DNA of 64,000 nucleotides from an uncultured delta proteobacterium. Its GTDB lineage: Bacteria; Myxococcota; Myxococcia; Myxococcales; Myxococcaceae. The stretch's first letter is position 1, and each line of letters begins with the position of its first letter. Below the pieces are notes generated by a model. That model was not told the DNA's origin, ran no database searches, and saw only the letters and a program-made list of their open reading frames with translations. Where the stretch lies: contig CAVYSY010000035.1 in assembly GCA_963771175.1 (NCBI GenBank), positions 35,482 to 99,481 of the forward strand. The letters run 5' to 3'. Positions 23,388-49,172 of the stretch are shown piece by piece. The position numbers were made by a program, and so were the translations under genes.

Positions 23388-23407
23388 GGTGTGGAATTCC
23401 TCGGGAA

Positions 23408-25789: not shown

Positions 25790-25882
25790 GGGGGTCCTCT
25801 CATCAGGGTGGCGGTGCTCCGCCGCCAGTGCGTGCTGCCGAGTCAGCACTGGCGCTGCGAGTTGGCACCCTGAGGGAGGTCC

Positions 25883-26627: not shown

Positions 26628-29600
26628 ATGAAGCATTCATCGCGCCCTCTCACGTCCGTTGAAGTCCTCGCTTCCCTGATGGGTGTCCCTCCTTCGGAGC
26701 TTGAACGTCAATCGGGCGTCCTGCTCGGGAGCCTGGGGATGGATTCGCTGACGGCGACGCGCGTGCGTGGCTCCTCTCGAGCCCCATGCCTTCCTATCAG
26801 GTTCTCTATGGGCTGACCGTGGCCCAGGCGGCGGCCGCGATTCCCAGACTGGAAGAAATGGCGTCTTCCTTTCTCAGAAATGAATGCGAGGCCTCCGGGG
26901 GGGATGGGGCGTTCGAGCTGACGCCCATGCAGGTGTCCTATGTGATTGGCGCCAGCCAGGACTGTCCCTGTCAGGTCTACTCCGAATTCGACATCGAGGA
27001 ACTCGACGTCGCCTGTTTCGAGCAGGCCGTGCGCCGGGCCGTCGCGCGCCATCCCATGCTGCACGCGGTCATCGTCGAAGGCACCCGGCAGCGGGTCCTC
27101 CCCGAGTCCGAGCGCCGCGAGCCCGTGCGCCTCGAAGCGCTTGCGGTGGCGGACCTGGAGCAGCGGCGCCAGGAGTGCATGACGGCGTTCCGGTCCCGGC
27201 CCGACCTGCACTGGGACGTCCAGTTGAGCCGGCTGGACGCGCGCACCGTCCGCGTCCACCTCCTGCTGGACATGCTCTTCATGGACGCCACCAGCGCGAT
27301 GATCCTCTGCCGCGAGGTCGCCGGGCACTACCGCGACCTCGTGCGGCGGGGCTCCACCCCCGCGCCGTCGGGCCCCGGGCTGGCGTTCCGCGACTACTGC
27401 GACCAGCTGGGGACGAAGCAGATCTCCGCCGCGTCTCTCGACTACTGGACGGCGCGCCTGGATGCGATGCCCGCCCCGCCCCAGCTTCCGCGCCGCAAGA
27501 GCGCGGGGGGGCTGGGCGTGGACTTCCAGCGGGAGTCCATCGCGCTGGGGGCCGAACGCTGGAACGCGCTCAAGGCCCACGCCAGCGCGCTGCAGGTCAC
27601 CTCCAACGCCCTGCTGCTCGCCGTGTTCTCCGAGGTGCTCGGCTTCTACGCCGAGGAGCCCGACTTCTCGGTCACCGTCACCATGTCCGAGCGGCCGGTG
27701 GTGCGCGGCAACGACTTCACCGGCACGGTCGGCGAGTTCACCAACATCCTGCTGTGCCCCATCACGGGCCGTCACGCGGGCATCGCCGAGCGCGCCACCG
27801 CCATCCACCGCGAGCTCAGCCAGGGGCTCGAGCACAGCGACCTGAGCGGGTTGGAAGTGGTGCGCATGCTGCGCAAGCGCCGCGCGGATCCGCACCTCAG
27901 TTTCCCCATCGTCTTCACCTCCTTCCTCGGCATCGTCGACTCCTGCGTGGAGTTCGCCGGCTGCCGCACGAGTCTCCACTTCCAGCAGACGCAGACGCCG
28001 CAGATCTCCCTGGACCACCAGGTCTACGAAATCGACGGCGAGCTGCGGATCAACTGGGACTACGACAGCCACATCCATGACCGCGACCTGATGCGCGACA
28101 TGCTGTCCTGCTTCCAGCACCTGCTGGAGCGCGTGGCCACCGGCGACCTGAGTACCTCGACCCTGCCGCCCGAGGTGCTGGCGCTGCGCGTGGGCATGAA
28201 CCAGACCCACGTGGACCTGGACCCGCAGGCGCCGCGCCTGCTTCACGGGCTGGTGCTGCGGGCCGCGCAGGCGACGCCCGACGCCACGGCGGTCATCGAC
28301 CAGGACGTCCGGCTCTCCTACGCGGAGTTGGTGGCGCTGGCCCGCGCCGCAGCGGTCCGCTTGCAGGACGCGGGCGTCGTCCCGGGGGCCTGCGTGGCCG
28401 TCGTCATGGAGAAGGGGTGGGAGCAGGTCGTCGCCACGACCGCCATCCTGCTGACCGGCGCGTACTACCTCCCGCTAAACCCGAGCCACCCCGACGACCG
28501 GCTGCGCAGCATCATCGCCCTGGCGGGCTGTGAGATCGCGCTGGTCCAGGACAAGTGCGTGAGCGCCGACCGCCACTGGCACCGCGCGCACGAGGGCGGC
28601 GCCGGGACCCCCACCCTTCGCGTGGACCGCACCCTGGTGGGTGAGGTTGGCGGACGCGTTCCCACGCCCGTGCCAGGTGGACCCTGACGCCCTGGCCTAC
28701 GTCATCTTCACGTCCGGCTCGACCGGCGCGCCCAAGGGCGTCGAGATCGCGCATGGCCCCGCGGTCAACACCTGCCTGGACATCAACGCGCGTTTCGGGC
28801 TCGGGGCGCGGACCGTCACCTTCGCCATCTCGTCGCTCAGCTTCGACCTGTCCGTCTGGGACATCTTCGGAACGCTGGGCGCCGGTGGCACGGTGGTGGT
28901 CTGCAAGCCTGATGGGACGCGCGATCCGGACTACTGGTGGCAGCAGCTGCACCAGCACCAGGTGACGGTCTGGAACACCGTCCCGACCTCATTCGAGATG
29001 CTGATCGCCTCCCGTCCTCCGGGCGCGACGCTGCCGCTGGAGGTGGCGATGCTCAGCGGTGACGCCATCAGCATGACGATGGCCGACCACGCGCTGGCCC
29101 TGTTCCCGGACCTCCAGCTAGTGGCCCTGGGCGGCGCGACCGAAGCCTCCATCTGGTCCAACTTCCACATCATCACCCGCCAGTCGCGCGAGCTGGGGAC
29201 CGAGCTGGTTCCGTACGGGCGGCCGCTCTCCAACCAGACAATGCACGTGCTGGACTCGCGCTTCGAGTACCGGCCGGCCGGCGTCGTAGGCGACATCTAC
29301 ATCGGCGGTGTGGGCTTGGCGCGCGGCTACTTCCGCGACCCGGAGCTCACGGCCAGCAAGTTCATCACGGTCGCGCCGTACGGGCGGCTGTACGCAACAG
29401 GGGATCTGGGCCGCTATCTGCCCAACGGCGAGATCGAAATCGTCGGCCGCAAGGATTCGCAGGTGAAGGTCGGCGGCCACCGCGTGGAGTTGGCGGAGAT
29501 CGAGCACTGCGCGGAGCGGCTGCCGTCGGTGCAGCGGGCCGCCGTCGTTCACATCCCGGGGGAGAGTGCCCGGCTCGTCGGCTTCGTGACCGCCAGCGAA

Positions 29601-30020
29601 CCGGGAGGCGGTGCGCAGGGGCTGGAGGAGGCGCTGCGCCTGCACGTCGAGAAGTACTTGCCGGACTACATGGCGCCGCAGAGCTGGATTGTCCTGGACG
29701 CGCTGCCGCTGACGGCCAACAGCAAGGTCGATACGAAGAAGCTGCGCCAGCTGGCCACGTCCTCCCAGTCGCGCAGGCAGGACAGCCAGCAGGGGGAGGG
29801 GAACAGCGAGGTCGCCCTCATCCTGCGGCTCGCGGCGCAGGTGCTCGGCGTGCCCGCGGACTCCCTCTCCGCCACCCAGAACCTGGCGGAGCAGGGCCTG
29901 TCGTCGCTCTTCGCCGTTCGGCTCGTCAACCTCTTGGCCGCAGCCTGGAACACCCGGCTCTCCTACACGCTCATCTTCAACTATCCGAGCGCGGTGCAGC
30001 TGGCGGCGTATCGCAGTGGC
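26628..30020 (+). other. Loading ACP and heterocyclisation NRPS module (Cy-A-PCP), cysteine predicted
   Basis: [19 protein letters not shown] (DxxxxD), [43 protein letters not shown]; pocket residues read by eye as DLWNMSLIW(K); PCP GLSSL. Confidence 0.85.
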
Positions 30021-33000
30021 CGCGCGGCGACGCGAGCCCCGGTGCGCCGCGACGGCCCGGCGGTGAACCCGGCGGAGCCCATTGCCATCGTGGCCCGGGC
30101 GTGCCGGCTGCCGGGCGACGTCCTGTCGCCGGACGACCTGTGGGAGATGTTGCTGGGCGGGACGGACTGCGTGACGGAGGTCCCCGCCTCGCGCTTCGAC
30201 ATCGACGAGGTGTTCGACGCGAACCCGAACGTGGTGGGGCGCAGCTACACCCGGCGCGGCGCCTTCATGCACGAGGTCGAGAGCTTCGACCACGACTTCT
30301 TCGGCATCCCGGTGGCGGAAGCCCGCGCCATGGATCCGCAGCAGCGCCTGTTGCTGGAGGTCGCCTACGAGGCCTTCCACGCCGCGGGCTATGACAAGGA
30401 GCGCCTGCGCGGTTCGTCCACCGGCGTCTTCATCGGGCAGATGAACTACGACTGGATGACGGACTTCGGTCACATCACCGACTACGCCGGGACCGGGTCG
30501 GCGCCGTCCATCTCCTCCAATCGCATCTCCTTCGCGCTCGACCTCGCCGGCCCGAGCATGACGCTGGACACGGCCTGCTCGTCGTCGCTGGTCGCCGTGG
30601 ACGCGGCCGTCACCAAGCTGCGCGCTGGCACCTGCCGCATGGCCCTGGCCGGTGGCGCGAACATGATCCTGTGCGCCACGCCCTACGTGACCACGTGTCA
30701 GGCGCGCATGCTTTCGGTGGACAGCCGCTGCGCCACCTTCGACAGTGCCGCCAACGGCATCGCGCGAGGCGAGGGCATTGGCGTCGTGGTGCTCAAGCGC
30801 CTGAGCGATGCGCAGGCGGACGGCGATCCGGTGCTGGCGGTGATTCGCGGCTCGGCGGTGAACCAGGACGGCCGCAGCGCTTCGCTGACGGCGCCCAACG
30901 GACTGGCGCAGGAGGCCGTCATCCGGCAGGCGTTGGACGTCGCGGGCCTGGAGGGGCGCGATGTCGACTACGTCGAATGCCACGGCACTGGCACGTCGCT
31001 GGGCGACCCGATTGAAGTCGAAGCGCTCAAGAACGTGCTGGGGGAGCGGCGCGAGAAGCCCGTGGTGCTGGGCGCCATCAAGAGCAACATCGGGCACCTG
31101 GAGGGTGCCGCGGGTGTGGTGGGGCTCATCAAAGCGGTGGAGGTGCTGCGTCGCCGTGAGGCGCCCGGCAACGTGCACTTCAAGACGCTGAACCCGAAGA
31201 TCGACCTGGAGGGCTTCGCCGCCGTCATCCCGACCCGGCCGACGGCGCTGGGGCAGACCGGGGCCAGCCATCCTCTCGTGGCGAGCGTTTCTTCGTTCGG
31301 GTACGGCGGCACCAACGCCCACGTCGTGCTCGAGTCCTGGGAGGCGCCCGCGGGCAGCAAGCAGGTCCCGCCCGCGGACGCGCTCTGGCTGTTCACCGGA
31401 CAGGGCTCGCTGGTGCCGGGGGCGGCGAAGGGGCTTTACGAGGCCAATGCCGTCTTCCGGGATGCGCTGGATCGGTACGCGGCGGTGCTGGAGTCGAAGG
31501 TGGAGGTGCCGCTCCTGAAGCTGCTGCTCTCCTCGGAGGGCGGCGTCGCGGAGCTGGTGCAGGAGACCCAGTACGCGCAGCCGGCAATCGTGGCGCTGCA
31601 ACTGGCGCAGGTGGCCATGTGGCAGGCGCGAGGAATGCGCCCGGAGGCGGTGCTGGGCCATTCGGTGGGCGAGTTCGCGGCGGCGGTGGTCGCGGGGGTG
31701 ATGACCGAGGAGGAGGCGCTGGAGCTGGCCGCGCTGAGGGGACGGCTGATGTCGCAGTGCCCGCGAGGAGGCATGGCGGCGGTGAGGGCGCCGGCGGAGC
31801 AGGTCAAGCCGCTGCTGCCGGGCGAGCTGGTGGTGGCAGCGGAGAACGAGCGGGCGATGACGGTGGTGGCGGGGCCGAAGGAGGCCCTGCAAAGGTTCGT
31901 CACGGAATCGCTCGGAGTGGCGCACACGATGCTGGCGGTGTCGCATGCGTTCCATTCACCGATGATGGAACCGGCGGCGGCTGAGTTCCGGCGGAGCTTG
32001 GAAGGGAAGACGTTCCAGGAGCCGCGGGGCGTGCGGTTCATCTCGACGCTGACGGGCGGGGTGGAGACGGCGCGGCTGAAGACGGCGGAGTACTGGGCCG
32101 AGCAGATGGTGCAGCCGGTGCGCTTCCTGCGAGCGGTGGAGACGGCATGGGCGGAGGGGACGGCGAAGACGGTCGTGGAGCTGGGGCCGGGGTCGACGCT
32201 GCTCACGTTGGCGAAGCGGATCGTGGGAGAGGAGGGGCCGCGCTGGGTCGCATCGGGCCAGGCGTTCCGATGGCGCCCGGGTCCGCGACTGTTCCGGCAC
32301 GTGCCACTGGGGTGGGGCAAGCCGGTGTCGAAGTTCGGGGGCGCCAAGGCGAAGTCCGCCGTGGAGCAGGCAACGCCCGCCACCTGCGTGTACGAAATGA
32401 CGTGGATGCCCTTGCCTCCCGAGACCGGGAGCACCCGCCACGAAGGCAAGCACCTGTTGCTGTCGCGGGACAGTGGTGGAGGGAGCGCTGCCCGAGGGCT
32501 GGCGGCGGTGGTGGCGAAGGAGGAGGAGCAGCTGCTGGCCGAGGTCTCACGCCAGCGGTGGATGACGGTGGCGCTCTGGGGGCAGCAACACCGAGGAGGA
32601 CGTGGAGCTGGGCCTGAGGCTGCTCCAGACGGCACAGGCCGACCGGCTGGTGTTCGTGACCGGGGCGGAGAGCGACGGAGACGCGGGCCTGTGGGGCCTG
32701 GCGCGGACGATGCGGCTGGAGAGGCCGGACCTGCGGGTGCGCTGCATTGAAAGGGCGGCGGGAGCGTTGGCGAAGGTCCTCACGCTGGCGACGAGCGCCG
32801 AGGCGGAAGACGAGCTGTCGGTGGATGAGGCCGGGACGGTAAGAGTCCCCCGGCTGCGCCGCTGCGCGGACGTGGGAGGCACCGAGAAGCTGGCGGTGCG
32901 CCCGGACGCCACGTACGTCATCAGCGGGGGCCAGGGTGCACTGGGGAAGGTGGCGGCCCGGCTGCTGGTGGAGCGAGGAGCCACGCACGTCCTGCTCCTG

Positions 33001-36000
33001 TCCCGGACGGCAGCGGCACCGGTGACACCGGAGTGGGTGGCGCTGCAAGCGAAGGCGCGGGTGGAGAGCCTGTCGTGCGACGTGTCAAGGCTGGAGAGCG
33101 TGCGCGGGGCGAGGCAGTGGCTGGAGGAAGCAGGCTGGCCCGTGGTGGGAGGAGTGGTGCACGCGGCGGGAGTGTTGAGCGACGGCACCATCCCGAACCA
33201 GTCGGCGGAGAAGCTAAGGCTGGCCTACGGGGCGAAGGTGCACGGCGCGAGGAACCTGAGGGAGGTGTTCGCACCGCCGGACTTCCTGGTGCTGTTCTCC
33301 TCGACGGCCGCGGCCTTTGGTTCGGCGGCCCAGGGTAGCTACGCGGCGGCGAACGCGACGCTGGATGCGCTGGCGCGGAAGTGGTCGGCGGCGGGAGAGG
33401 CGGTGCTGTCGGTGCAGTGGGGCGCGTGGTCCGACGGCGGCATGGCGGCGCGACACGACGCGTTCAAGCGGTCGGAAGCCGAGGGCCTGGGAAGCATCAG
33501 TGACGCGCTGGGAACGGCGGTGCTCGAGAAGCTGCTGGCGGCAGGCAAGCGGGGAACGGTCTGCGTCTCGCCCATCGACTGGAGCCGGCTGACCCTCGAG
33601 AGCCCTCGGTTCGAATTGCTCGCAGGGCCGGGGGGCTCGACGAAGCGCCAGAGCTGGAGCCGCCTGGCGCTGCAGCAGTTGGTGCGGGACTGCGTCCTCC
33701 AGTTCATTCCTTCCAGCGCGGTGGAGGTCAACCGCTCGTTCATGGAGGCGGGCTTCTCCTCGCTGGATCTGGTGCAGTTCCGTAGGCAGTTGCTCGCGCG
33801 GCTGCCGGACTCGGTCGAGCTTCCGGTCCACTTCGCCTTCAACTACCCCACCGAGGAGGACGTCACCAACCACCTGTTCGAACAGCTCCAGGTCAAGGCC
33901 GAGCCAGCTCCTGGCGCGAGTGGCATGTGGACGCTGCTGAACGGCCGGACCCAGGGAACGCCGCTCTTCCTCGTCGGCGGCGTGATGGGCACTGTGGAGA
34001 AGACCTTCGGGGCCCTGGCCGCGGCACTGCCGGTGCCGGTCTATGCCGCCATGCCGGGCATCCCCGCGGTCATCGACCCCGCCCAGACGAACCTGGAGGG
34101 GCTCGCGGCGGAGCTGCGCGCGTCCATGGAGAGCACCGCCGCGTGTGATGCGTACACAGTCGGAGGCCTGTCCTTCGGCGCGGCGGTCGCATTCGGAATG
34201 GGCTTGCAGCTGGAGCGCGAAGGCAGGCTGGCCCGGATCGTGATGCTGGATCCCCGGCACATGCCGCCGTTCGTGGCGCCGGAGGCCCCGGCGCCCTTCG
34301 AAACGCTGCTGGAGCACTACACCCCGTCCGGCATGGTCCGGTCGCCCGTGCTCGTGTTCCAGAGCGCGATTCCGCCGCTCGAGCGCCAGTCGGGAGATGA
34401 TGCGCGAAGCGTCGCGCTCCTTCCAGGACGACACCGCCGTCCTGGAGCGCTGCCGCGCGATGTGCCCGTCCATGGAAGTCATCCGGAGCGACGGGCACCA
34501 CTTCAACCTGCTCAACAAGCACTACGAGCCGATCGCCGCACGCATCGAGCACGACCTCACCGCGCCGCCCGCGGAGGAGGGAGTGGCGGAGGCGATCGCC
34601 ATCGTGGGCCGGGCGTGCCGCCTGCCCGGCAACGTCCGGTCTCCCGACGAGCTGTGGAAGATGCTGCTGGCGGGAACCGACTGCGTGACCGACATCCCGG
34701 CGTCGCGCTTCGATATCGACGAGGTGTTCGATGCGAACCCCGATGTGGCGGGCCGCAGCTACACCCGGCGTGGCGCCTTCATGAACGAAGTCGAGAGCTT
34801 CGACCACGACTTCTTCGGCATCTCGGTGGCGGAAGCCCGCGCCATGGATCCGCAGCAGCGCCTGCTGCTGGAGGTTGCCTACGAGGCGTTCCATGACGCG
34901 GGTTACGACAAGAAGCGCCTGCGGGGCTCGCCGACGAGTGTTCACATCGGTCTGGCCAACGACGACTGGACCACGATGGGCCGCGACCACGAGGCCCACA
35001 GCCCACACTTCGGCGCGGGCGTCTCCGGGTCGATCGCTTCCAATCGCATCTCCTACCTGCTGGGGCTCACCGGACCGAGCATGACGTTGGACACCGCCTG
35101 TTCGTCGTCGCTGGTGGCGGTGGACCTGGCGGTGGAGAAGCTGCGCAGCCGCATCTGTTCCATGGCGCTGGTCGGTGGCGTCAACGTGATGTTGCACCAC
35201 CGAATGTTCGTGAGCGCGTGCGCGACCAAGGCCCTGTCCCCCGCGGGGCGCTGCGCGACCTTCGACGCGTCGGCGGATGGCTACTGCCGGGGCGAGGGCG
35301 TGGGCGCGGTAGTCCTCAAGCGCCTCAGCGACGCACTGGCGGACGGCGACGAGGTGCTGGCGGTGATTCGCGGCACCGCGGTGAACCAGGACGGCCGAAG
35401 CGCTTCGCTGACGGCGCCCAATGGGCTGGCGCAGGAGGCCGTCATCCGGCAGGCGCTGGGCGTCGCGGGCCTGGAGGGACGGGAGGTCGACTACGTCGAA
35501 TGCCATGGCACCGGTACATCGCTGGGCGATCCGATTGAAGTCGGAGCGCTCAAGAACGTGCTGGGGGAGCGGCGTGAGAAGCCCGTGGTGCTGGGCGCCA
35601 TCAAGAGCAACATCGGGCACCTGGAAGGGGCCGCCGGGGTGGTGGGGCTCATCAAGGCGGTGGAGGTGCTGCGCCGCCGTGAAGCGCCCGGCAACGTGCA
35701 CTTCAAGACGCTGAACCCGAAGATCGATCTGTCGGGATTCGCGGCCGTCATTCCGACGGGAGCGACTGCGTTGGGCGGGAAGGAGGACGCGCGTCCGCTC
35801 GTCGCAGGGGTTTCGTCGTTCGGCTTCGGTGGGACCAATGCCCACGTGGTGCTGGAGTCCTACGAGAAGGCCAGCGCCGGCGCGGTCGTGGAGACCCGGC
35901 CGCGCATGGAGTACGCGCCGCGGTTCCTGCCCTGGCGGCGTGTGCCGCATCCGTTCCTGAGCCGCAAGGACGAGACCGGCTTCGTGGCGGTGCTGGCGGG

Positions 36001-39000
36001 AGAGCAGGCGGAGCGGTGGAAGGACCACCGCATCGCCGAACAGGTGCTGGTGCCCGCAGCGAGTCACCTGACGATGCTGGGCGGCGCGGCGCTGTTGAAG
36101 CAGGGCCGCGATGCCGTCAAGGCGATGGGCGTGGAGGTCCAGGACGTGGTGATGCCGCGTCCGCTGGTGGTGGGGAGCGGGGGCAGCGTGGTCCGCTGTG
36201 TCGCCAACGGCCCACAGTGGAGCGTGCAGGAGGAGCGCAACGGGAGCAGTGAATTCGTGGCGAGCTGCCGGGCCACGCGGATCCTGGGCAGTGCGGATGT
36301 GGCGCGCAGCGACGTGGAGGTCGAAGCCGTGCGCGGCCGCTGTGTCCCGGCGGACGTGGATGCGCTGTACGGCCTGCTGTCCCGCCAGGGCGTGCAGTTC
36401 GGACGTGGCTACCGCAACCTGACGGAGCTGTCCCTGGGCGAAGAGGAGGCCATCGCGCGGGTCGAGGTGGAGCAGGCGTCCGTGGTGGACCGGGGCCTGA
36501 CGCTGGTGCACCCGGCGACGCTGGACGCGGGCATTCAGTTGCTCGGGCTGTGGGGGATGAAGACCTGCGGCGTCTGCCTGCCGTTCAACGTGCAGAGCGC
36601 GCGACTGTTCTCGGTGGAGGAGCAGCCGCGAAAGCTGTGGGCGTACGCGAGGGTGAGCGCGAGCAGTGCCAGGAGCGTGGAAGGAACGGTGACGCTCTTT
36701 GGCGACGATGGAGAAGTGTATGCGGTGCTCGAAGGACTGACCTGCCGACAGGCGAGCGTGGACACGCGCGTCCAGGAGAGTGTCTTCGAGACGGAGTGGA
36801 TGGCGGTGGCATCGGCACCGGGTCCGCTCGTCGCACAGGGTGGCGCACACCTGCTGCTGTCGCGGGAAGTGGTGGAGGGAGCGCTGCCCGAGGGCTGGCA
36901 GGTGGTGGTGGCGAAGGAGGAGGAGCAGCTGCTGGCCGAGGTCTCACGCCAGCGGTGGATGACGGTGGCGCTCTGGGGGAGCAACACCGAGGAGGACGTG
37001 GAGCTGGGCTTGCGGCTGCTGCAGACGGCACAGGCCGACCGGCTGGTGTTCGTGACGAAGGCGGAGAGCGACGGAGACGCGGGCTTGTGGGGCCTGGCGC
37101 GGACGATGCGGCTGGAGAGGCCGGACCTGCGGGTGCGCTGCATTGAAAGGGCGGCGGGAGCGTTGGCGAAGGTCCTCACGCTGGCGACGAGCGCCGAGGC
37201 GGAAGACGAGCTGTCGGTGGATGAGGCCGGGACGGTAAGAGTCCCCCGGCTGCGCCGCTGCGCGGACGTGGGAGGCACCGAGAAGCTGGCGGTGCGCCCG
37301 GACGCCACGTACGTCATCAGCGGGGGCCAGGGTGCACTGGGGAAGGTGGCGGCCCGGCTGCTGGTGGAGCGAGGAGCCACGCACGTCCTGCTCCTGTCCC
37401 GGACGGCAGCGGCACCGGTGACACCGGAGTGGGTGGCGCTGCAAGCGAAGGCGCGGGTGGAGAGCCTGTCGTGCGACGTGTCAAGGCTGGAGAGCGTGCG
37501 CGGGGCGAGGCAGTGGCTGGAGGAAGCAGGCTGGCCCGTGGTGGGAGGAGTGGTGCACGCGGCGGGAGTGTTGAGCGACGGCACCATCCCGAACCAGTCG
37601 GCGGAGAAGCTAAGGCTGGCCTACGGGGCGAAGGTGCACGGCGCGAGGAACCTGAGGGAGGTGTTCGCACCGCCGGACTTCCTGGTGCTGTTCTCCTCTG
37701 CGGCGGCGGTCTTCGGTTCCTCGGGGCAGGGCAGCTACGCGGCGGCGAACGCGACGCTGGACGCGCTGGCGCGGAAGTGGTCGGCGGCGGGAGAGGCGGT
37801 GCTGTCGGTGCAGTGGGGTGCGTGGTCCGACGGCGGCATGGCGGCGCGGCACGACGCGTTCAAGCGAGCCGAGGCAGGTGGCTTCGGGAGCATCAGCGAC
37901 GCGTTGGGAATGGCGGCACTCGAGGAGTTGCTGGCGGCAGGCAAGCGGGGAACGGTCTGCGTCTCCCCGATTGACTGGAGCCGGCTCCAGCTGGAGCAGC
38001 CGCTCATCTCCCGCTTCCGCCCCAAGCGAAGCGAGAGCAAGGCGCAGCGGCGTACGGAGTCGAAGGGCGGCCCCACGGTGGCGGAGCTGGCCGCGCTGGT
38101 GCGTCGGGCGGCGGCCGAGTCGATGGGCCTGCCCGCGGGCGGCCAGGTCATCGACGACGAGCCGCTGATGGCGCAGGGGCTGGACTCGTTGGGCGCGGTC
38201 GGTCTGGCGCAGATACTCAGCCGGGAGCTGGGCCTGACGTTGGGCGCGGTGTTCGTGCTGAATCATCCGACGCTCGAGGACATGGCGGCGGCGCTCGCGG
38301 CTCGCCTCGAAAACACGACGCCGAGCGCGCCACAGCCTCGCCCGCGAGTGCAGCGCTCCGAGGAGCCCATCGCCATCGTGGGAACGGCGTGCCGGCTGCC
38401 CGGCAATGTCCGCTCGCCGGACGAGATGTGGGAGATGCTGCTGGAGGGGCGGGATTGCGTGACGGAGATTCCCTCGTCGCGCTTCGACATCGACGCGGTG
38501 TACGACGCCAACCAGGACGTCGCGGGCTGCAGCTACACGCGGCGCGGGGCCTTCATGACCGGGGTCGAGAGCTTCGACCTCGACTTCTTCGGCATCCCCG
38601 TCGCGGAGGCCCGGGCCATGGACCCGCATCAGCGACTGTTGCTCGAGGTGGCCTACGAGGCGTTCCACGATGCCGGCTATGACAGGAAGCGCCTGCGCGG
38701 CTCCTCCACCGGTGTCTTCGTCGGCGTCGCCAACCAGGATTGGATGATCGTCTCCGGGGAGAGCGAGGCGAAGAATCCCTACTTCGGCGCTGGCGTTTCC
38801 TCTTCCATCACGTCCAACCGCATCTCCTACCTGCTCGGGCTCACCGGACCGAGCATGACGCTGGACACGGCCTGCTCGTCATCGCTGGTGGCGGTGGACC
38901 TGGCGGTGGAGAAGCTGCGCAGTGGTGTGTGCTCGACGGCGCTCGTGGGTGGCGTCAACGTCATGCTGCACCACCGCACCTTCGTCGGCTGCTGCGCCGC

Positions 39001-42000
39001 CAAGATGCTGTCCGTGGAGGGCCGCTGCGCGACCTTCGACGCGTCGGCGGACGGCTACTGCCGCGGAGAAGGCGTGGGCGCGGTGGTGCTCAAGCGCCTC
39101 GGCGACGCGCTGGCGGATGGTGACGAGGTGCTGGCGGTGATTCGCGGCACCGCGGTCAACCAGGACGGCCGCAGCACGTCACTGACCGCGCCGAATGGTC
39201 TGGCGCAGGAGGCGGTCATCCGGCAGGCGCTGGACGTCGCGGGTCTGGAAGGGCGGGAGGTCGACTACGTCGAATGCCACGGCACCGGCACGTCGCTGGG
39301 CGACCCGATTGAAGTCGAGGCACTCAAGAATGTGCTGGGAGAACGGCGCGACAAGCCCGTGGTGCTGGGCGCCATCAAGAGCAACATCGGCCACCTCGAA
39401 GGGGCCGCCGGAGTGGCGGGGCTCATCAAGGCGGTGGAGGTCCTGCGCCGCCGCGAGGCGCCGGGCAACGTCCACTTCAAGGCGCTGAATCCGAAGATTG
39501 ACCTGGCGGGGTTCGCCGCGGTCATCCCGACCGCGCCGGTGCCGTTGGGGCGGAAGGGGGACTCGCGGCCGCTCGTCGCGGGGGTCTCGTCGTTCGGCTT
39601 CGGTGGGACCAACGCCCATGTGGTGCTGGAGTCCTACGCGCATGCTGGAGCCGGCGCGGTGGCCGAGCGCCGGGCGCGCATGCAGTACGCGCCTCGATTC
39701 CTGCCGTGGCGGCGGTTGCCGCATCCGCTCCTGAGCCGCGAGGACGAGACCGGGTTCGTGGCGGCGCTGAGCGGAGAGCAGGCGGAGCGCTGGAAGGACC
39801 ACCGCATCGCCGAGCAGGTGCTGGTGCCCGCCGCGAGTCACCTGACGATGCTGGGCGGTGCGGTGCTGCTGAAGCAGGGCATCGACGGCATCAAGGCCCC
39901 TGGCGTCGAAGTCGAGGACGTCGTCATGCCGCGTCCGCTGGTGGTGGGGAGCGGGGGCAGCGTGGTGCGCTGTGTCGCCAACGGCACCCAGTGGAGCGTG
40001 GAAGGCGAGCGGGACGGCCTCGAGGAAGTGGTGGCGAGCTGTCGATCCGCTCGGGTCCTGAGCAGTGTCGACCTGATGAGCAGCGACGTGGAGGTCGAAG
40101 CGGTGCGTGGCCGCTGCCCTCCGATGGACGTGGAGGCGCTGTACGAGACGATGTCGCATCTTGGGGCCCGGTTCGGGCCCGGCTACCGCAATCTGAAGAC
40201 GCTGCATCTGGGGGAGGAAGAGGCAATCGCCCGGGTCGAGGTGGAGCATGCGTCCGTGGTGGACCGGGGCCTGACGTTGCTGCATCCGGCGACGCTGGAT
40301 GCCGGCATCCAGCTCCTCGGGCTGTGCGGGATGAAGACTTGCGGAGTCTGTGTCCCGTTCAACGTGCAGAGCGCGCGACTCTTCTCGGTGGAGGAGCAGC
40401 CCCGAGGACTGTGGGCATACGCGAGGGTGACCGAGCGCAGCGCCAGGAGCGTGGAAGGAACAGTGACGCTCTTTGGCGACGATGGAGAAGTGTACGCGGT
40501 GCTCGAAGGGCTGACCTGCCGACAGGCGAGCGTGGACACGCGCGTCCAGGAGAGTGTCTTCGAGACGGAGTGGATGGCGGTGGCATCGGCACCGGGTCCG
40601 CTCGTCGCACAGGGTGGCGCACACCTGCTGCTGTCGAGGGAAGTGGTGGAGGGAGCGCTGCCCGAGGGCTGGCAGGCGGTGGTGGCGAAGGAGGAGGAGC
40701 AGCTGCTGGCCGAGGTCTCACGCCAGCGGTGGACGACGGTGGCGCTCTGGGGAAGCAACACCGAGGAGGACGTGGAGCTGGGCTTGCGGCTGCTGCAGAC
40801 GGCACAGGCCGACCGGCTGGTGTTCGTGACGAAGGCGGAGAGCGACGGAGACGCGGGACTGTGGGGCCTGGCGCGGACGATGCGGCTGGAGAGGCCGGAC
40901 CTGCGGGTGCGCTGCATTGAAAGGGCGGCGGGAGCGTTGGCGAAGGTCCTCACGCTGGCGACGAGCGCCGAGGCGGAAGACGAGCTGTCGGTGGATGAGG
41001 CCGGGACGGTACGAGTCCCCCGGCTGCGCCGCTGCGCGGACGTGGGAGGCACCGAGAAGCTGGCGGTGCGCCCGGACGCCACGTACGTCATCAGCGGGGG
41101 CCAGGGTGCGCTGGGGAAGGTGGCGGCCCGGCTGCTGGTGGAGCGAGGAGCCACGCACGTCCTGCTCCTGTCCCGGACGGCAGCGGCACCGGTGACACCG
41201 GAGTGGGTGGCGCTGCAAGCGAAGGCGCGGGTGGAGAGCCTGTCGTGCGACGTGTCAAGGCTGGAGAGCGTGCGCGGGGCGAGGCAGTGGCTGGAGGAAG
41301 CAGGCTGGCCCGTGGTGGGAGGAGTGGTGCACGCGGCGGGGGTGTTGAGCGACGGAACCATCCCGAACCAGTCGGCGGAGAAGCTAAGGCTGGCCTACGG
41401 GGCGAAGGTGCACGGCGCGAGGAACCTGAGGGAGGTGTTCGCACCGCCGGACTTCCTGGTGCTGTTCTCCTCTGCGGCGGCGGTCTTCGGTTCCTCGGGG
41501 CAGGGCAGCTACGCGGCGGCGAACGCGACGCTGGACGCGCTGGCGCGGAAGTGGTCGGCGGCGGGAGAGGCGGTGCTGTCGGTGCAGTGGGGTGCGTGGT
41601 CCGACGGCGGCATGGCGGCGCGGCACGACGCGTTCAAGCGAGCCGAGGCAGGTGGCTTCGGGAGCATCAGCGACGCGTTGGGAATGGCGGCACTCGAAGA
41701 GTTGCTGGCGGCAGGCAAGCGGGGAACGGTCTGCGTCTCCCCGATTGACTGGAGCCGGCTCCAGCTGGAGCAGCCGCTCATCTCCCGCTTCCGGCCCAAG
41801 CGAAGCGAGAGCAAGGCGCAGCGGCGTACGGAGTCGAAGGGCGGCCCCACGGTGGCGGAGCTGGCCGCGCTGGTGCGTCGGGCGGCGGCCGAGTCGATGG
41901 GCCTGCCCGCGGGCGGCCAGGTCATCGACGACGAGCCGCTGATGGCGCAGGGGCTGGACTCGTTGGGCGCGGTCGGCCTGGCGCAGATACTCAGCCGGGA

Positions 42001-45000
42001 GCTGGGCCTGACGTTGGGCGCGGTGTTCGTGCTGAATCACCCGACGGTAACGGAGTTGGCCACGGCGCTCGCGGCTCGTCTCGAGAGCGCGACGCCGAGC
42101 ACGCCTTCGCCCGCCCCACGGACGCAGCGGCAACCGCGGCGCTCCGAGGAGCCCATCGCCATCGTGTCCCGGGCGTGCCGGTTGCCGGGCGACGTCCTGT
42201 CGCCGGACGAGATGTGGGAGATGTTGCTGGCGGGCCGGGACTGCGTGACGGAGGTCCCCGCCTCGCGCTTCGACATCGACGAGGTCTACGACCCCAACCA
42301 GAACGTGGTGGGCCGCAGCTACACGCGGCACGGCGCCTTCATGAACGAGGTCGAGAGCTTCGACCACGACTTCTTCGGCATCCCGGTCGCGGAAGCCAGG
42401 GCCATGGATCCGCAGCAGCGCCTGCTGTTGGAGGTCGCCTACGAGGCCTTCCACGCCGCGGGCTACGACAAGGCGAGCCTGCGCTCGTCGCGCATCGGCG
42501 TGTTCGTGGGGCAGATGAACCACGACTGGGCGCACATGAACGCGGAGGACCAGCTCTCGGATCCGTTCTTTGGCGCAGGCTCCTCGGCGTCCATCACGTC
42601 CAACCGCATCTCCTACCTGCTGGGGCTCACCGGACCGAGCATGACGCTGGACACCGCCTGTTCGTCGTCGCTGGTGGCGGTGGACCTGGCGGTGGAGAAG
42701 CTGCGCAGCGGCGTGTGTTCCGCGGCGCTCGTGGGCGGCGTCAACGTCATGCTGCACCACCGCACCTTCGTCGGCTGCTGCTCCGCGAAGATGCTGTCCG
42801 CCAAGGGGCGCTGCGCGACCTTCGATGCGTCCGCGGACGGCTACTGCCGGGGCGAGGGCGTGGGCGCGGTGGTCCTCAAGCGCCTCGGCGATGCCCTGGC
42901 GAACGGTGATGAGGTGCTGGCGGTGATCCGCGGCACCGCGGTCAATCAGGACGGCCGCAGCGCTTCGCTGACGGCGCCCAACGGGCTGGCGCAGGAGGCG
43001 GTCATCCGGCAGGCGCTGGAGGTCGCCGGCCTGGAAGGCCACGAAGTGGACTACGTCGAATGCCACGGCACCGGCACCTCGCTGGGCGACCCGATTGAAG
43101 TCGAGGCGCTCAAGAACGTGCTGGGTGCGCGGCGTGACAAGCCCGTGGTGCTGGGCGCGGTGAAGAGCAACATCGGGCACTTGGAGGGCGCCGCAGGTGT
43201 GGTGGGGCTCATCAAGGCGGTGGAGGTGCTGCGCCGTCGCAAGGCGCCCGGCAACGTCCATTTCAAGACGCTGAACCCCAAGATCGATCTGGCGGGCTTC
43301 GCCGCCATCATTCCGACCCAGCCGACTGCGTTGGGGCGGAAGGGGGAGAAGCGGCCGCTCGTCGCCGGGGTCTCGTCGTTCGGCTTCGGCGGCACCAACG
43401 CTCACGTCGTACTCGAATCCTGGGATGCGCCTGCGTCAGGCAAGGCGATCCCCTCTGCTACGGAAGTCGGGGGCTGGGAATGACAGTGCTATGGATGTTC
43501 ACCGGACAGGGCTCGCTGGTGCCAGGGGCGGCGAAGGGGCTTTACGAGGCGAATGCCGTCTTCCGGGACGCGCTGGACCGGTACGCGGCGGTGCTGGAGT
43601 CGAAGGTGGAGGTGCGGCTGCTGAAGCTGCTGCTCTCCGAGGAGAAGGACGTCGCGGAGTTGGTGCAGGAGACCCAGTACGCGCAGCCGGCAATCGTGGC
43701 GCTGCAACTGGCGCAGGTGGCCATGTGGCAGGCGCGAGGAATGAGCCCGGAGGCGGTGGTGGGCCACTCGGTGGGCGAGTTCGCGGCGGCGGTGGTCGCG
43801 GGGGTGATGACCGAGGAGGAGGCGCTGGAGCTGGCCGCGCTGAGGGGACGGCTGATGTCGCAGTGCCCGCGAGGAGGCATGGCGGCGGTGAGGGCGCCGG
43901 CGGAGCAGGTCAAGCCGCTGCTGCCGGGCGAGCTGGTGGTGGCAGCGGAGAACGAGCGGGCGATGACGGTGGTGGCGGGGCCGAAGGAGGCCCTGCAAAG
44001 GTTCGTCACGGAATCGCTCGGAGTGGCGCACACGATGCTGGCGGTGTCGCATGCGTTCCATTCACCGATGATGGAACCGGCGGCGGCTGAGTTCCGGCGG
44101 AGCTTGGAAGGGAAGACGTTCCAGGAACCGCGGGGCGTGCGGTTCATCTCGACGCTGACGGGCGGGGTGGAGACGGCGCGGCTGAAGACGGCGGAGTACT
44201 GGGCCGAGCAGATGGTGCAGCCGGTGCGCTTCCTGCGAGCGGTGGAGACAGCGTGGGCGGAGGGGGCGGCGAAGACGGTCGTGGAGCTGGGGCCGGGGTC
44301 GACGCTGCTCAAGCTGGCACAGCGGATCGTGGGGGAGGCGGGGCCGCAATGGGTCGCGTCGAGCCATGCGCTCCGATGGGGCCGCGGCCCTGGACTGTTC
44401 CGGCACGTGCCGCTGGGGTGGACCAAGCCTGGGGCGAATCCACGGGCCGCCAAGGCCGCGCCCGCGGAGCAGGCAACGCCCGCCACCAGCGTGTACGAGA
44501 CGGTGTGGGCCGCGTCCCCACCGGTCGCCACGCGAACGACGACCCACGGTGAACACCTGCTGCTGTCGAGGGAAGTGGTGGAGGGAGCGCTGCCCGAGGG
44601 CTGGCGGTCGGTGGTGGCGAAGGAGGAGGAGCAGCTGCTGGCCGAGGTCTCACGCCAGCGGTGGACGACGGTGGCGCTCTGGGGAAGCAACACCGAGGAG
44701 GACGTGGAGTTGGGCCTGCGGCTGCTGCAGACGGCACAGGCCGACCGGCTGGTGTTCGTGACGAAGGCGGAGAGCGACGGAGACGCGGGACTGTGGGGCC
44801 TGGCGCGGACGATGCGGCTGGAGAGGCCGGACCTGCGGGTGCGCTGCATTGAAAGGGCGGCGGGAGCGTTGGCGAAGGTCCTCACGCTGGCGACGAGCGC
44901 CGAGGCGGAAGACGAGCTGTCGGTGGATGAGGCCGGGACGGTAAGAGTCCCCCGGCTGCGCCGCTGCGCGGACGTGGGAGGCACCGAGAAGCTGGCGGTG

Positions 45001-48000
45001 CGCCCGGACGCCACGTACGTCATCAGCGGGGGCCAGGGTGCACTGGGGAAGGTGGCGGCCCGGCTGCTGGTGGAGCGAGGAGCCACGCACGTCCTGCTCC
45101 TGTCCCGGACGGCAGCGGCACCGGTGACACCGGAGTGGGTGGCGCTGCAAGCGAAGGCGCGGGTGGAGAGCCTGTCGTGCGACGTGTCAAGGCTGGAGAG
45201 CGTGCGCGGGGCGAGGCAGTGGCTGGAGGAAGCAGGCTGGCCCGTGGTGGGAGGAGTGGTGCACGCGGCGGGAGTGTTGAGCGACGGCACCATCCCGAAC
45301 CAGTCGGCGGAGAAGCTAAGGCTGGCCTACGGGGCGAAGGTGCACGGCGCGAGGAACCTGAGGGAGGTGTTCGCACCGCCGGACTTCCTGGTGCTGTTCT
45401 CCTCTGCGGCGGCGGTCTTCGGTTCCTCGGGGCAGGGCAGCTACGCGGCGGCGAACGCGACGCTGGACGCGCTGGCGCGGAAGTGGTCGGCGGCGGGAGA
45501 GGCGGTGCTGTCGGTGCAGTGGGGTGCATGGTCCGACGGCGGCATGGCGGCGCGGCACGACGCGTTCAAGCGAGCCGAGGCAGGTGGCTTCGGAAGCATC
45601 AGCGACGCGTTGGGAATGGCGGCACTCGAAGAGTTGCTGGCGGCAGGCAAGCGGGGAACGGTCTGCGTCTCCCCGATTGACTGGAGCCGGCTGCCAGCTG
45701 GAGCAGCCGCTCATCTCCCGCCTCCGCCCCAAGCAAGGCGTGAGCGCGTCGCAGCCGCAGGCCGGGCCTTCCGCCAGCCACGTCGTAGCGGAGGACCTGC
45801 TCGCGATGGTCCGGCAGGCCGCCGCTGAATCCATCGGCAAGCCCGTCGCGGACGATGCCTCCCTCCTGGACAGCGGGCTGGATTCGCTCGGCAGCGTGTC
45901 GCTGCGCAACCGCATCGCCTCGCGCCTGAACGTCGAGCTGTCGGCCGCCTTCGTGTTCGAGTTCCCGAGCGTGAACGCGATGGTCCGGCACCTGGCGACC
46001 CTGGCTCCCCGCGCCGCTGCCCGTCCGGTGTCCACGCCGACGCGGACCCACCTGCCCGTGCTCGTGATTGGCGCGGGCGTGGGCGGGCTCAGCTTCGCCA
46101 GGAAGCTGGAGAATGCGGGCACGTCCGTGGTCGTGATGGACGCGGCCGCGCACGTCGGCGGCGTCTGGCAGACGCTCGCCAATGCCTCGTCGAAGTTGCA
46201 GATCGACTCACCTGCCTACGACTTCGACAGCACGGCGATGCCGTCCCCGGGCGATCACAGCTGGAAGACCAGCTTCCCCTCGCAGCAGGAGATCCTGGCC
46301 GGTTGTCAGGGCACGGCGGAGGGCCTGCTCGGTCCCGTGTATCTGGAGTCGCGCGTCCAGAACGTGCGCAAGGTCGCTGACTCCGAATACGAGGTCACCT
46401 ACCAGCGCGCTGGACGGACGCAGCGGATGCGGGTCTCCGGCGTGGCCGCCATGACGGGCGGTCTGCACCGCCCTCGGCGTCACACGTTCCCAGGGGAGGA
46501 CGTATTCGGCGGGCACATCGGGCTCGGCATCGCCAACGACACGCCGCTCGAGGCCTTCCGCGGCGCCTCCGTGGTGATCGTGGGACACGGCGCCTTCGCC
46601 GTGGAGAACATGCGCACCGCCCTGGAGAACGGCGCCCGGCACGTGACCCTGCTGTGCCGTCAGCGGCACATGGTGCTCTCCACGTTCTGCAACTGGCTGC
46701 TCAATTCGAGCAAGGGCGTGATGCCCGTGTCCGACGTGGTGGACGTCATGCGCCCCTTCTACGCGGCGTGTGGCGTCGATGTGCAGGACCTGCACTCGCT
46801 GGCACGGGACACGACGGGCGAGTGGACGCTGGACCAGGCGACGGTGCCAGCTGGCTCCGACCTCTACTTCCTGGCCCAGATGATGGGCAAGCTGCGCATC
46901 GTCGTCGGAGAGACGTCCCACCTCACCGCCAACACGGTGGTGACCCGGGACGGTGAAGCGCTTGAGGCCGACATCTTCCTCAAGTGCCTGGGCTCGCACA
47001 CCGACGACTCGGTGCTGCTGGGACTCTTCGGCGAGGGCAGCCGGGTGCAGGGGCTCTGGATCAACGGCGACCCCAACCTCATCACGTACAACGATGGCGC
47101 GCAGGCGCCGCGCAAGGTCAAGTCGTTGATGTGCGCCAGCTACGCGTTCTTCGTGCAGGTCTTCGCGCCGGCCTACCTGCACTTCCGCGAGGACCGTGAC
47201 GCCCATGCACGCGCCCTGGCCCGCATCACCGCCGCGTCCCCGACGACCACCGACGCCGAGCGCGTGCTCCTCGAGCTGTGGGACTTCCTGGAGCCCTCCA
47301 AGCGCGTGTTGTCCGAACGCACCCTGGAGCTCCTCCCGTTCGACCGCTTCCAGGTCGAGCGTGAAGCGGAGTGGGCGCGCTACTGCCGGATGCTGGGGGG
47401 CACCGGAGAGGAGGGCCACGCGCTGTGGCGGCTCCTACGCCCGACGCTGGCGCTCGTGCATCGCCGCAACCCGCAGGCGCCCGTCGAGCTGCGCAGCCAC
47501 CATCCGCTGCTGGGCTCGCTGTCCGTGTTCGTACCGCGCCGCCCCCGGGTGCTGTTCCTGCCGGGACAGGGGACCAACGCGCGTCTTGCCCGCAGCCTGC
47601 TGGAGCGGACCGGATGGATCGACCGTTCGCACCTGGACTTCGTCGTGCCGGACGCGCCGTACGAAATGCCTGCCTTCACCAACGAGGTGCAGCTGGAGCA
47701 GATTGGACTGAGCCAACTGGTGAGCGTCGGGCTTTACGACAAGACGGCGCGCTACCGTGAATGGCGCGCCGGCTTCGAGGCGCTCTACCAGCGGCACCAC
47801 CACGGCACCGCGTTCGAGGTGACCGCCGAGGTCCGCGAGCAGTGGCGGGTGACCCTGGCGTACCTGCGCGAAGTCGTGCAGCGCCACGGACCGTTCGACG
47901 GCATCGCCGGCTTCTGCGAGGGCGCCGCGGTGGCTTCGGTGGCGCTGCACCTGCAGGCGCGCGGCGAGGACCAGGGGCTCGGCTCGGTTCGCTTCTTCGT

Positions 48001-48274
48001 GGCCATGTCCCCGTGGCGCTCGCCGATGCACCAGCAGGAGGGCATGTTCCGCCCGGACCAGCCGCTCCAACTGCCCATGCTCCAGATCGTCGGAGAGAAC
48101 GACATGGACGTGTTCCTGGGCGCGGCCCCGCACTTCTTCTCGGACTACGCGGGCGCCAGCGAGTTCCGCCACGCGGGGCAGCACGTCTATCCCCCGTTCA
48201 CCCCCGGCCTGGAGGCCAGGCTGCGCGAGTTGATCAGCGTGAGCAGCGAGGGAGGGCGCCGGGCCGCGACCTGA
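26628..48274 (+). CDS. Hybrid NRPS-PKS megasynthase, probably one ORF broken by single-base indels: ACP-Cy-A-PCP-KS-AT-KR-ACP-TE-KS-DH-KR-ACP-KS-DH-KR-ACP-KS-AT-KR-ACP-FMO-FSH1
   Basis: ORFs 26562, 26786, 28641, 32602, 34397, 43480 and 45524 overlap and mostly switch frame mid-domain (about 26772, 28675, 32585, 34392, 43472, 45695); all catalytic motifs readable. Confidence 0.85.
30075..34555 (+). other. PKS module 1 (KS-AT-KR-ACP) plus internal thioesterase
   Basis: DTACSSS/HGTGT/KSNIGH; GHSVG and HAFH (malonyl); GGQGALG, SYAAAN; GFSSL; TE GLSFG, MLDP, DGHHF. Confidence 0.85.
34590..38310 (+). other. PKS module 2 (KS-DH-KR-ACP), no AT
   Basis: KS end GTNAHVVLE is followed within about 30 aa by the DH ([26 protein letters not shown]); KR; GLDSL. 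Confidence 0.88.
38360..42085 (+). other. PKS module 3 (KS-DH-KR-ACP), no AT; duplicate of module 2
   Basis: Same motifs; KR-ACP offset by 3774 nt and nearly identical in DNA. Confidence 0.88.
42147..46000 (+). other. PKS module 4 (KS-AT-KR-ACP)
   Basis: KS motifs intact; FTGQG, GHSVG, HAFH; KR; GLDSL. Confidence 0.87.
46055..48274 (+). other. Terminal flavin monooxygenase-like domain and FSH1/LovG-like hydrolase
   Basis: [23 protein letters not shown]; then [32 protein letters not shown]. Confidence 0.75.
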
Positions 48275-48823: not shown

Positions 48824-49172
48824 GCTTGGGGCTCCTCTGGCCATGTCGGTGGCTATTCCTGCAACGTCCTATGGGTCGCTCGCCAATCCGCAGATAAGGG
48901 CTGCAAAGGCCATGGGTGTCAATCGTCCTGCTGCGACTGCGCGAACTGATTGCTCGTGAGGTGAAGGTGACGGTCGGAGACGCGCCTCGCGGTCCGATGG
49001 TCTGGCGTCATTCCCGACGATGCCAGCCTCCGACCGTCCGGGGCCGGGTCGCACGCATGCTCCTCGCCCGAGTGAGGGCGGGAGCCGCACCCCTCCCGAT
49101 GGGGCAATGGGTGGGCCCTGCCCACATCGCTAGCCTTTCCAGCGCAGGGCGAGTGGGGAGGGGGACGGGACG

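Follow-up and report, generated by a model that had tools for sequence, protein, structure and literature searches.

The question raised by the locus considered here is whether a run of broken reading frames in an uncultured soil myxobacterium represents one decaying gene or an intact biosynthetic system, and, if the latter, what such a system would make. The window (the whole stretch of 64,000 nucleotides analysed; G000:C35:35482-99481, on contig CAVYSY010000035.1 of assembly GCA_963771175.1, assigned to the family Myxococcaceae) comes from a genome of 9.83 Mb in 58 contigs, 82% complete and of approximately 69.5% GC, and its plus strand is covered from 26628 to 48274 by seven overlapping frames. 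These frames, seen again here, had been described in a first-pass annotation made from the letters alone as a stand-alone gene of about 7,200 residues for a hybrid nonribosomal peptide synthetase (NRPS)–polyketide synthase (PKS), i.e. as a one-gene pathway. The element is instead a cassette of two giant genes and a MepB-family companion, and not a single gene.

The division into two genes rests on the switch of frame between the fourth ketosynthase (KS4) and the acyltransferase (AT) that follows it, which is a genuine ATGA stop/start overlap at 43480..43483 on the plus strand, preceded by a G-rich stretch resembling a ribosome-binding site and kept in the complete genomes of the same family. 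The overlap is repeated in all three of these complete genomes, with a DNA identity of 81–84% over 22.2 kb, the fourth cluster found among the 200 same-family genomes running into a contig edge. The stop/start after KS4 was found in the window and in G171, G129, G146, L012, and L014, which rules out one reading frame running through the entire domain string, and a Xanthomonas metagenome-assembled genome and Ca. Neptunochlamydia have the gene split at the same KS4/AT place. Gene A (26628..43483, plus strand) reads through as 5,616 residues (5,617 codons) and gene B (43480..48274, plus strand) as 1,597 residues, in both cases without in-frame stops; intact orthologues of gene A measure 5,608 (G171), 5,579 (G129), and 5,572 residues (G146) and about 5,560 residues in L024, the open frame of Ca. 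Neptunochlamydia exceeding 5,500 codons. Gene B is likewise intact in G171, G129, and G146 (1,600, 1,603, and 1,604 residues), and relatives with an intact frame range from 1,594 to 1,692 residues, with the AT at their start. Nor does the synthase stand alone, since a conserved MepB-family gene (48284..48844, minus strand, with the start possibly at 48823) lies convergent on gene B and ends 9 bases past its stop; the block held in common with relatives spans from about 26,600 to 48,890.

The switches of frame other than the one at 43480–43483 are assembly errors. Contigs from four public runs (three studies) were compared with positions 26500–34580 of the window and lack one base each at 26775, 26778, 28672, 32471, 32583, and 34392, while having one more base at 32503, and each of these differences in gene A is present in run X1 plus either X2 or X3. 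Run X1 differs in 27 letters out of 3,691 and could represent the source sample itself or a strain close to it. In gene B, the surplus base at 45693 is missing from L064, a metagenome locus of 89% identity, as well as from the sister repeats, and comparison of sister repeat copies, said by the earlier annotation to expose extra bases at 32585 and 45695, does so at 32583 and 45693. The cluster of 21.6 kb therefore holds eight wrong bases in all, seven of them in gene A. That annotation had placed the switches mostly inside domains and regarded each as mended by one base, of which it stands that five of the six are errors; 43480–43483 is a true overlap, and the one-base rule fails, as the first switch consists of two extra bases (26775 and 26778) and the stretch 32471–32583 contains three indels.

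The opposite view, that of a decaying pseudogene with real frameshifts, could draw on the presence of eight indel positions within 21.6 kb and on run X2, which at 26775/26778 has a depth of 5.78 without a deletion, a point that speaks against sequence error. It is nevertheless very improbable, with the seven gene A indels absent from the contigs of X1 and of X2 or X3, the eighth absent from L064, and no in-frame stop anywhere. The genome as a whole is also affected to a greater degree than the cluster: among 164 coding sequences predicted over 400 kb of the relative G008, 69 aligned adequately (82% identity, 70% cover), and 79 clusters of frameshifting differences, 47 of them single insertions, appear over their 84,751 aligned bases, with 30 of the 69 genes affected. 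The genes flanking the cassette show window-specific shifts of the same kind (16927, 19053, 19246, 20111, and 24876), and seven comparisons of relative with relative gave 0–2 shift clusters each, none at the places of the window's flanking shifts. The earlier view of the mid-domain shifts as errors and not decay is thus borne out by the near-identical-strain contigs and by the genome-wide frameshifts. The coding sequence of this genome has approximately 0.9 frameshifting indels per kb, chiefly single insertions, and other split genes in the assembly are likely errors too.

Read through in this way, gene A has the order ACP0-Cy-A-PCP-KS1-AT1-KR1-ACP1-TE-KS2-DH-KR-ACP2-KS3-DH-KR-ACP3-KS4 and gene B the order AT-KR-ACP4-FMO-FSH1, where Cy, A, KR, DH, and TE denote heterocyclization, adenylation, ketoreductase, dehydratase, and thioesterase domains, ACP and PCP acyl and peptidyl carrier proteins, and FMO a flavoprotein monooxygenase. 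The Pfam models recover the full string, as first annotated, with the exception of the N-terminal carrier, which is evident from its motif and from alignment to relatives. The catalytic motifs reported earlier as intact are so: the KS Cys-His-His in all four, the AT motifs GHSVG and HAFH in both, the DH motifs HxxxxxxxxP and LDAG in both, and the KR nucleotide-binding motif and catalytic Tyr in all four, to which the carrier Ser in all six can be added; they are conserved across relatives. The KRs carry LSD at the LDD position, which we take to indicate the B-type.

The carrier ACP0 (26628..26860, plus strand, as are all domains of both genes; GMDSL; recognized by motif in eight relatives) contains the two extra bases 26775 and 26778 and has no loading domain ahead of it. 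It is followed by the Cy domain (26918..28141; DMLFMDATS, Pfam Condensation), whose DxxxxD motif is found in 11 rows and whose closest solved relatives are the Cy domains of Irp2, EpoB, and BmdB, Cy structures making up the top eight of ten matches in the Protein Data Bank (PDB). The A domain and PCP (28259..30011, with the extra base 28672; Pfam, alignment to BmdB and PchE) show, when read by eye, the pocket D-L-W-N-M-S-L-I-W-K, identical to BmdB at 8 of the 10 code positions. A cysteine-type pocket following a Cy domain, in keeping with the thiazoline of the first annotation, suggests that the A domain would select cysteine. PKS module 1 (KS1-AT1-KR1-ACP1, 30075..33876, with the indel errors at 32471, 32503, and 32583) has an AT of the malonyl type (HAFH), and behind it lies an internal TE of approximately 200 residues (33961..34530; Ser in GLSFG, Asp in LDPR, His in GHHF; extra base 34392). 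Modules 2 (34589..38296) and 3 (38357..42070), identified by Pfam and motifs, are both AT-less KS-DH-KR-ACP units and duplicates of one another with 88% DNA identity over 5 kb, and KS4 (42149..43426), the final domain of gene A, has its AT-KR-ACP partners on gene B.

Gene B, for which Pfam and intact relatives agree, opens with a malonyl-type AT and contains the extra base 45693. Its FMO domain (46058..47320; Pfam) has both dinucleotide-binding motifs (GAGVGG and GHGAFA) and is predicted to adopt a class B fold, with a predicted local distance difference test score (pLDDT) of 93.7; the best fold match of this model is DiatB (Z 24.5, 20% identity), and the top matches include N- and S-oxygenases. 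The fingerprint of type I Baeyer–Villiger monooxygenases is FxGxxxHxxxW(P/D), which the corresponding stretch of the FMO does not match. The terminal domain (47540..48193; Pfam) is an α/β-hydrolase of the FSH1/LovG type, the model of which superimposes on yeast FSH1 (1YCD) with Z 19.1 and a root-mean-square deviation of 3.0 over 202 aligned residues, with no PDB match found for it by sequence. The presence of a flavin monooxygenase and a terminal hydrolase, as claimed before, is thus supported by Pfam and by the predicted folds. The nucleophile position of the hydrolase (GFCEG in the window) is occupied by Cys in 37 of 45 sequences (GFCEG or GFCQG) and by Gly in the other 8 (GFGEG), the Ser of GxSxG being absent, and the putative Asp and His of the GENDM and GQHVYP motifs are conserved across relatives.

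The reading of these parts that is preferred here, with a probability of roughly one half, is that of a colinear hybrid assembly line encoded by a portable cassette of gene A, gene B, and the MepB-like gene. In this model, malonyl delivered to ACP0 by either AT would yield a starter equivalent to acetyl, to which Cy-A-PCP would add cysteine, with presumed closure of the ring to a 2-methylthiazoline. Module 1 would then add malonyl and reduce it to the hydroxyl; modules 2 and 3, supplied in trans from AT1 or from the separately translated AT that opens gene B, would introduce one E double bond each; and module 4, formed by KS4 together with AT-KR-ACP of gene B, would add a β-hydroxy unit. The FMO may add one oxygen, with epoxidation or hydroxylation likelier than a Baeyer–Villiger reaction, and the Cys-FSH1 domain would release the chain as an acid. 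The predicted core is 3,9-dihydroxy-9-(2-methylthiazolin-4-yl)nona-4,6-dienoic acid (C13H19NO4S) of 285.10 Da, a mass that the added oxygen would raise to 301.10. The internal TE would be a side activity on the module-1 intermediate, the first guess being that it clears stalled chains and releases a short shunt product and the second that it O-acylates the new hydroxyl, and the carriers would be primed by an Sfp-type phosphopantetheinyl transferase (PPTase) of the host. The product would probably be a diffusible weapon or signal. The four malonyl extensions postulated at the outset are consistent with four elongating modules with intact KS and two malonyl-type ATs, and the postulated acyl-thiazoline is in keeping with the Cy domain, the cysteine-type pocket, the FMO, and the hydrolase, although the order of events leading to the product stays conjectural.

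Colinearity agrees with the gene order, which is colinear in every full-length relative mapped, and with the protein P0008, in which ACP-Cy-A-PCP-KS-KR-ACP is joined directly to FMO-FSH1, with no TE, so that the front half is linked to the terminal domains. It is further backed by the intact motifs conserved among relatives, the cysteine-type pocket, and the intact two-gene copies of three complete genomes. Since P0165, P0008, and the dinoflagellate homologue from Effrenium (see below) lack the AT of module 1, trans loading appears to be used in the family. Several points weigh against the colinear model. The neighbouring genes include no conserved enzyme that could load ACP0; P0008, which from where its KS ends stands at 84% to P0018, may represent a collapse across repeated KR regions; searches of the PDB, the Atlas, and folds yield only generic class B matches for the reaction type of the FMO; and in several actinomycete copies of gene B the tyrosine of the KR or the motif of ACP4 is missing, with both FMO motifs still in place, which, together with the Gly nucleophile in 8 of 45, means that release by FSH1 cannot hold family-wide. 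Furthermore, a purely colinear line has no need of an internal TE, yet none of the full-length relatives inspected lacks any part of the triad of this domain, and in the intact Xanthomonas copy its model (pLDDT 94) has a type I fold, with fold scores of Z 21.0–21.9 tied among TEs of NRPSs, fatty-acid synthases, and the oocydin branching TE (7R0X, Z 21.1) and only 16.7–18.0 for type II TEs. The fold searches gave no separation of release from branching function.

The same observations can be arranged into an out-of-order line, in which KS2 to ACP4 would prime themselves and build a short polyene chain, the FMO would oxidize it, the Cys-FSH1 domain would transacylate it to ACP0, Cy-A-PCP and module 1 would complete the chain, and the internal TE would release the product, or, in a variant, Cys-FSH1 would hand the chain to the hydroxyl of the front-half product. 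Such a route would account for an ACP0 without a conserved loader, for a TE with an intact triad whose fold scores lie above those of the type II editing TEs, and for a predominant Cys nucleophile, Cys nucleophiles being common in transacylases. It is considered unlikely because KS2 retains its catalytic Cys, i.e. is not a decarboxylating KSQ, and has no priming domain, and because the front half sits directly on FMO-FSH1 in P0008 and full-length relatives are colinear. Less likely again is the wider proposition that an out-of-order pathway operates across five phyla and the Symbiodiniaceae, with the internal TE releasing a thiazoline product and MepB protecting the producer.

The variability of the back half invites a further interpretation, according to which the front half (ACP0 to TE) would be the conserved core and release a short 3-hydroxy-3-(thiazolinyl)propanoate and the back half would be optional or give a minor congener, with the FMO acting partly in trans. 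The number of DH modules and the site of the split do vary, the final module is absent in Effrenium, and part of the actinomycete clade has lost the FSH1 Cys, the KR Tyr, or ACP4 with the FMO motifs kept; yet myxobacteria, Xanthomonas, the chlamydial genome, and, as to gene B, Vibrio have a fully intact back half, which indicates selection on a long product in these hosts and makes two separate products doubtful. It is also conceivable, if improbable, that the final state of the cysteine is something other than a thiazoline, the ring being oxidized, opened, or rearranged (to a thiazole, N-acyl aminothiol, thiolactone, or pyridine-type product), in keeping with a built-in FMO whose top fold matches include N- and S-oxygenases. 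As far as the accessible parts of the sources go, Cy-A(Cys)-PCP acts together with a flavoprotein or P450 in the caerulomycin and thiolactomycin pathways (PMC8149447, 10.1101/2024.12.18.629141), but the conserved neighbours of the cluster here include neither an FMN oxidase nor an acyl-CoA-dehydrogenase-type flavoprotein nor a P450, and such a change would bear more on the product finally made than on the logic of assembly.

The cluster was found in only 4 of the 200 same-family genomes, three of them complete, and in none of the 17 congeners searched. Gene B is 85–87% identical to proteins of Corallococcus and Myxococcus, a similarity that points to a myxobacterial host for the window. Holders, placed in their phyla as we presume them to belong, are Corallococcus, Myxococcus, and Kofleriaceae in the Myxococcota; Xanthomonas, Serratia (up to 127 members per cluster), Vibrio nigripulchritudo (three conjugative plasmids), and V. 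parahaemolyticus in the Pseudomonadota; Ca. Neptunochlamydia in the Chlamydiota; Halalkalibacter, Bacillus subtilis, and two staphylococci in the Bacillota; and Streptomyces, Nocardia, Amycolatopsis, Actinopolyspora, and Streptacidiphilus in the Actinomycetota. Their layouts vary in an orderly manner: the DH modules number one or two, the genes are divided at KS|AT or at AT|KR, and the AT of module 1 is present or absent. A FastTree of FMO-FSH1 (46 family rows and seven outgroups) separates a KS|AT-split group (0.88) from an AT|KR-split group (0.94), each with mixed phyla, and this mixing, together with the patchy presence and the plasmid location, supports horizontal spread of the cassette. 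RNA runs show small matching shares and gave no evidence of expression.

A quick KS tree of 72 rows with few references (matches below 330 residues dropped; five of the ten other KS of this genome kept) places the 33 bacterial family KS in one clade, with a support of 99 by the Shimodaira–Hasegawa-like approximate likelihood ratio test (SH-aLRT), apart from other myxobacterial KS and from the rows labelled trans-AT by their Pfam content. Modules 2 and 3, and module 1 in P0165, P0008, and Effrenium, are AT-less, as is characteristic of trans-AT systems. Grouping follows position to a large extent, in support of the colinear model: eleven KS1 rows group together (SH-aLRT 93), as do the other 22 (98), and KS2–KS4 of the window cluster together (96) and not with their positional partners. 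At the DNA level, identity is 88% between modules 2 and 3, 89% between module 1 and the split module 4, and 95–96% among the four KR regions; the same repeats reach 81–88% in three relatives and 67–83% in the chlamydial copy. These values suggest growth by module duplication with continuing homogenization, to which mixing of repeats in the assembly may contribute. P0165 (Bacillus subtilis) carries two tandem carriers ahead of its internal TE, and L054 (NC_015156.1 42661-63009, a Vibrio plasmid), which sits downstream of an α/β-hydrolase and dinB, shows a truncated KS ahead of the final one in gene A, L070 likewise having two tandem KS.

A member of the family was also found in a dinoflagellate, an alga of the type that lives in symbiosis with corals, five gene models of Effrenium voratum matching the cassette with 38% identity over FMO-FSH1. 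The longest of them, P0013 (4,170 residues), reads Cy-A-PCP-KS-KR-ACP-TE-KS-DH-KR-ACP-FMO-FSH1 after a degenerate N-terminal carrier; it is one chain without an AT or the final module and shares with the cassette the Cys pocket, the TE triad, and the Cys-FSH1 domain. The models differ by entire TE or DH blocks, as alternative exon calls would. The Effrenium KS pair and two long unnamed rows join the KS clade of the bacterial family (95), and P0233 of Symbiodinium microadriaticum (871 residues), which covers only the terminal part, forms a long-branched pair with Effrenium (1.0). This pairing argues for a resident algal gene, the comparison being one of protein models alone, in which contamination is possible. 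Nine further long KS proteins (P0034, P0041, P0046, P0083, P0100, P0129, P0132, P0146, and P0160) have distant FMO copies, and their long-branched KS may be algal.

The MepB-family gene (Pfam PF08877) matches S. aureus MepB (PDB 4LQE) with an E-value of 3.8e-20 over residues 45–168. It adjoins the cluster in all three complete same-family genomes, in all four genomes of a separate search, and on the Vibrio plasmid, as well as in 12 of 17 metagenome loci, several of which are near duplicates, three of the five misses ending less than 700 bases from gene B. None was found in 40 relatives, all without the cluster, and 1 of 14 control genomes had a match; in G000, G171, G041, and G042 it is the sole copy in the genome. 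The chlamydial genome (L024, L014; G043:C150) has three MepB genes, all on the contig of the cluster, two upstream and one downstream, and its 22-kb cassette amounts to approximately 1.5% of a genome of 1.5 Mb. Its linkage to the cluster allows the guess that MepB most likely serves in self-protection or control.

Little else is constant around the cassette. As initially stated, no PPTase, regulator, or free AT gene adjoins it among the 44 plus 30 open reading frames (ORFs) scanned (six of the 30 from the window), and clustering of 215 flanking ORFs by blast gave no conserved loader, transporter, or regulator. A PPTase is carried by L014, L015, L062, and L070, and a homologue lies on contig C10 of the window's genome; other hosts have a type II TE (two loci), a metallo-β-lactamase-fold hydrolase (three to four), or a metallophosphoesterase (five), and transposase or mobile-element genes lie near the cassette in L012, L025, L069, and L026. 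Directly left of the cassette, a remnant at 26040–26150 (plus strand), 93–95% identical to 116–119 bases in G006 and G003, resembles the last part of a GNAT acetyltransferase and possibly records where the cassette was inserted. Further left lies a CotH/porin/thymidylate-kinase/DUF4956 operon (19770–25849, minus strand), which several congeners keep elsewhere in their genomes and whose CotH gene is broken here by the window-specific shift at ~24876. To the right of mepB, a gene with many frameshifts (49173–50581, plus strand) resembles by eye a metallo-β-lactamase fold at its start; its pieces have no Pfam match, and it does not match the hydrolase in the cassettes of other hosts.

Judged from its genes, the cassette probably builds a small S- and N-containing natural product, and the retention of its layout over hosts of 34–70% GC, including a predator, a chlamydial genome of 1.5 Mb, and a conjugative plasmid, points to a useful but unrecognized small molecule. 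Products are difficult to assign to the PKS and NRPS genes of dinoflagellates, and the chemistry of an Effrenium-type megasynthase becomes testable because intact, compact counterparts exist in culturable bacteria (Corallococcus, Myxococcus, Bacillus subtilis, Serratia, and Streptomyces). Three questions of enzymology meet in one system, namely an internal type I TE, an embedded FMO without the usual fingerprint, and a Cys-FSH1 release domain, and the poorly understood MepB family gains its first biosynthetic context. Were the out-of-order route true, MepB would have its first pathway role and the product of a dinoflagellate megasynthase could be found in a culturable bacterium.

In agreement with the first-pass annotation, no characterized cluster with the same layout, and no description of the family or its product, was found in the open literature, subscription papers being poorly covered and supplements excluded; the main text of PMC3020234, on the V. 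nigripulchritudo plasmids, is silent on the synthase, and the accessible portions of PMC9666466, PMC4359443, PMC13004891, and PMC6361889 hold no relevant passage on the family. A scan of seven proteins against NCBIfam gave no pathway-specific model above cut-off.

Among known systems, the cassette resembles epothilone EpoA/B/C, yersiniabactin HMWP2/1, and bacillamide BmdB, which have an acyl carrier, Cy-A(Cys)-PCP, and malonyl-extending modules. It differs from them in its bare ACP0, the internal TE after module 1, the mixture of cis-AT and AT-less modules, the last module split over two genes, the FMO and Cys-FSH1 end in place of a C-terminal TE, and the MepB companion. With LovG and yeast FSH1 it shares the Pfam family and the fold, and the place after the last ACP fits chain release, which we take to be the role of LovG; it differs in the fusion to a bacterial PKS and in the Cys or Gly that replaces Ser. 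S. aureus MepB, encoded in an efflux operon and having an endonuclease-like fold, is similar in sequence, but here the gene is tied to a biosynthetic cassette. With trans-AT PKSs (oocydin TE 7R0X, lobatamide LbmA Ox 8ODW) there are in common the AT-less modules, an internal TE by a hydroxyl-forming module, and an embedded class B FMO; in contrast, the KS lie outside the AT-less myxobacterial and proteobacterial group, two ATs are of the cis type, and the structural ties stand at 16–18% identity.

The closest points of reference in dinoflagellates are hybrids of two types, BurA-like and ZmaK-like, described in the accessible text of PMC8283056, PMC9027781, and PMC7159223 as common to bacteria and dinoflagellates and presumed to stem from horizontal acquisition; the ZmaK-like type is equated here, by inference, with the second cis-AT clade of PMC7159223. 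The cassette shares an internal TE with the BurA-like and an FSH1 domain with the ZmaK-like hybrids, but as described in these passages neither type has a Cy domain or an FMO, both of which are present in the cluster family. The BurA-like enzyme is given there (PMC7159223) as TE-A-PP-KS-AT-TE-KR-PP with the KS motifs VNSACSS/HCGTG, and the ZmaK-like one (all three sources) as one module with an enoyl reductase, without Cy, with V[AQ]TACSS/HGGTG and the carrier motif GGHSL, whereas the cluster family, Effrenium included, has DTACSAS/HGTGT and GMNSL. A BurA-like identity is ruled out by architecture and KS motifs, and a ZmaK-like one, considered for the sake of the FSH1 domain, by architecture and motifs. 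Since its parts are of known kinds, the system is a variant of the hybrid NRPS–PKS and not a new category, apparently an undescribed one, conserved and mobile, with a counterpart in a dinoflagellate.

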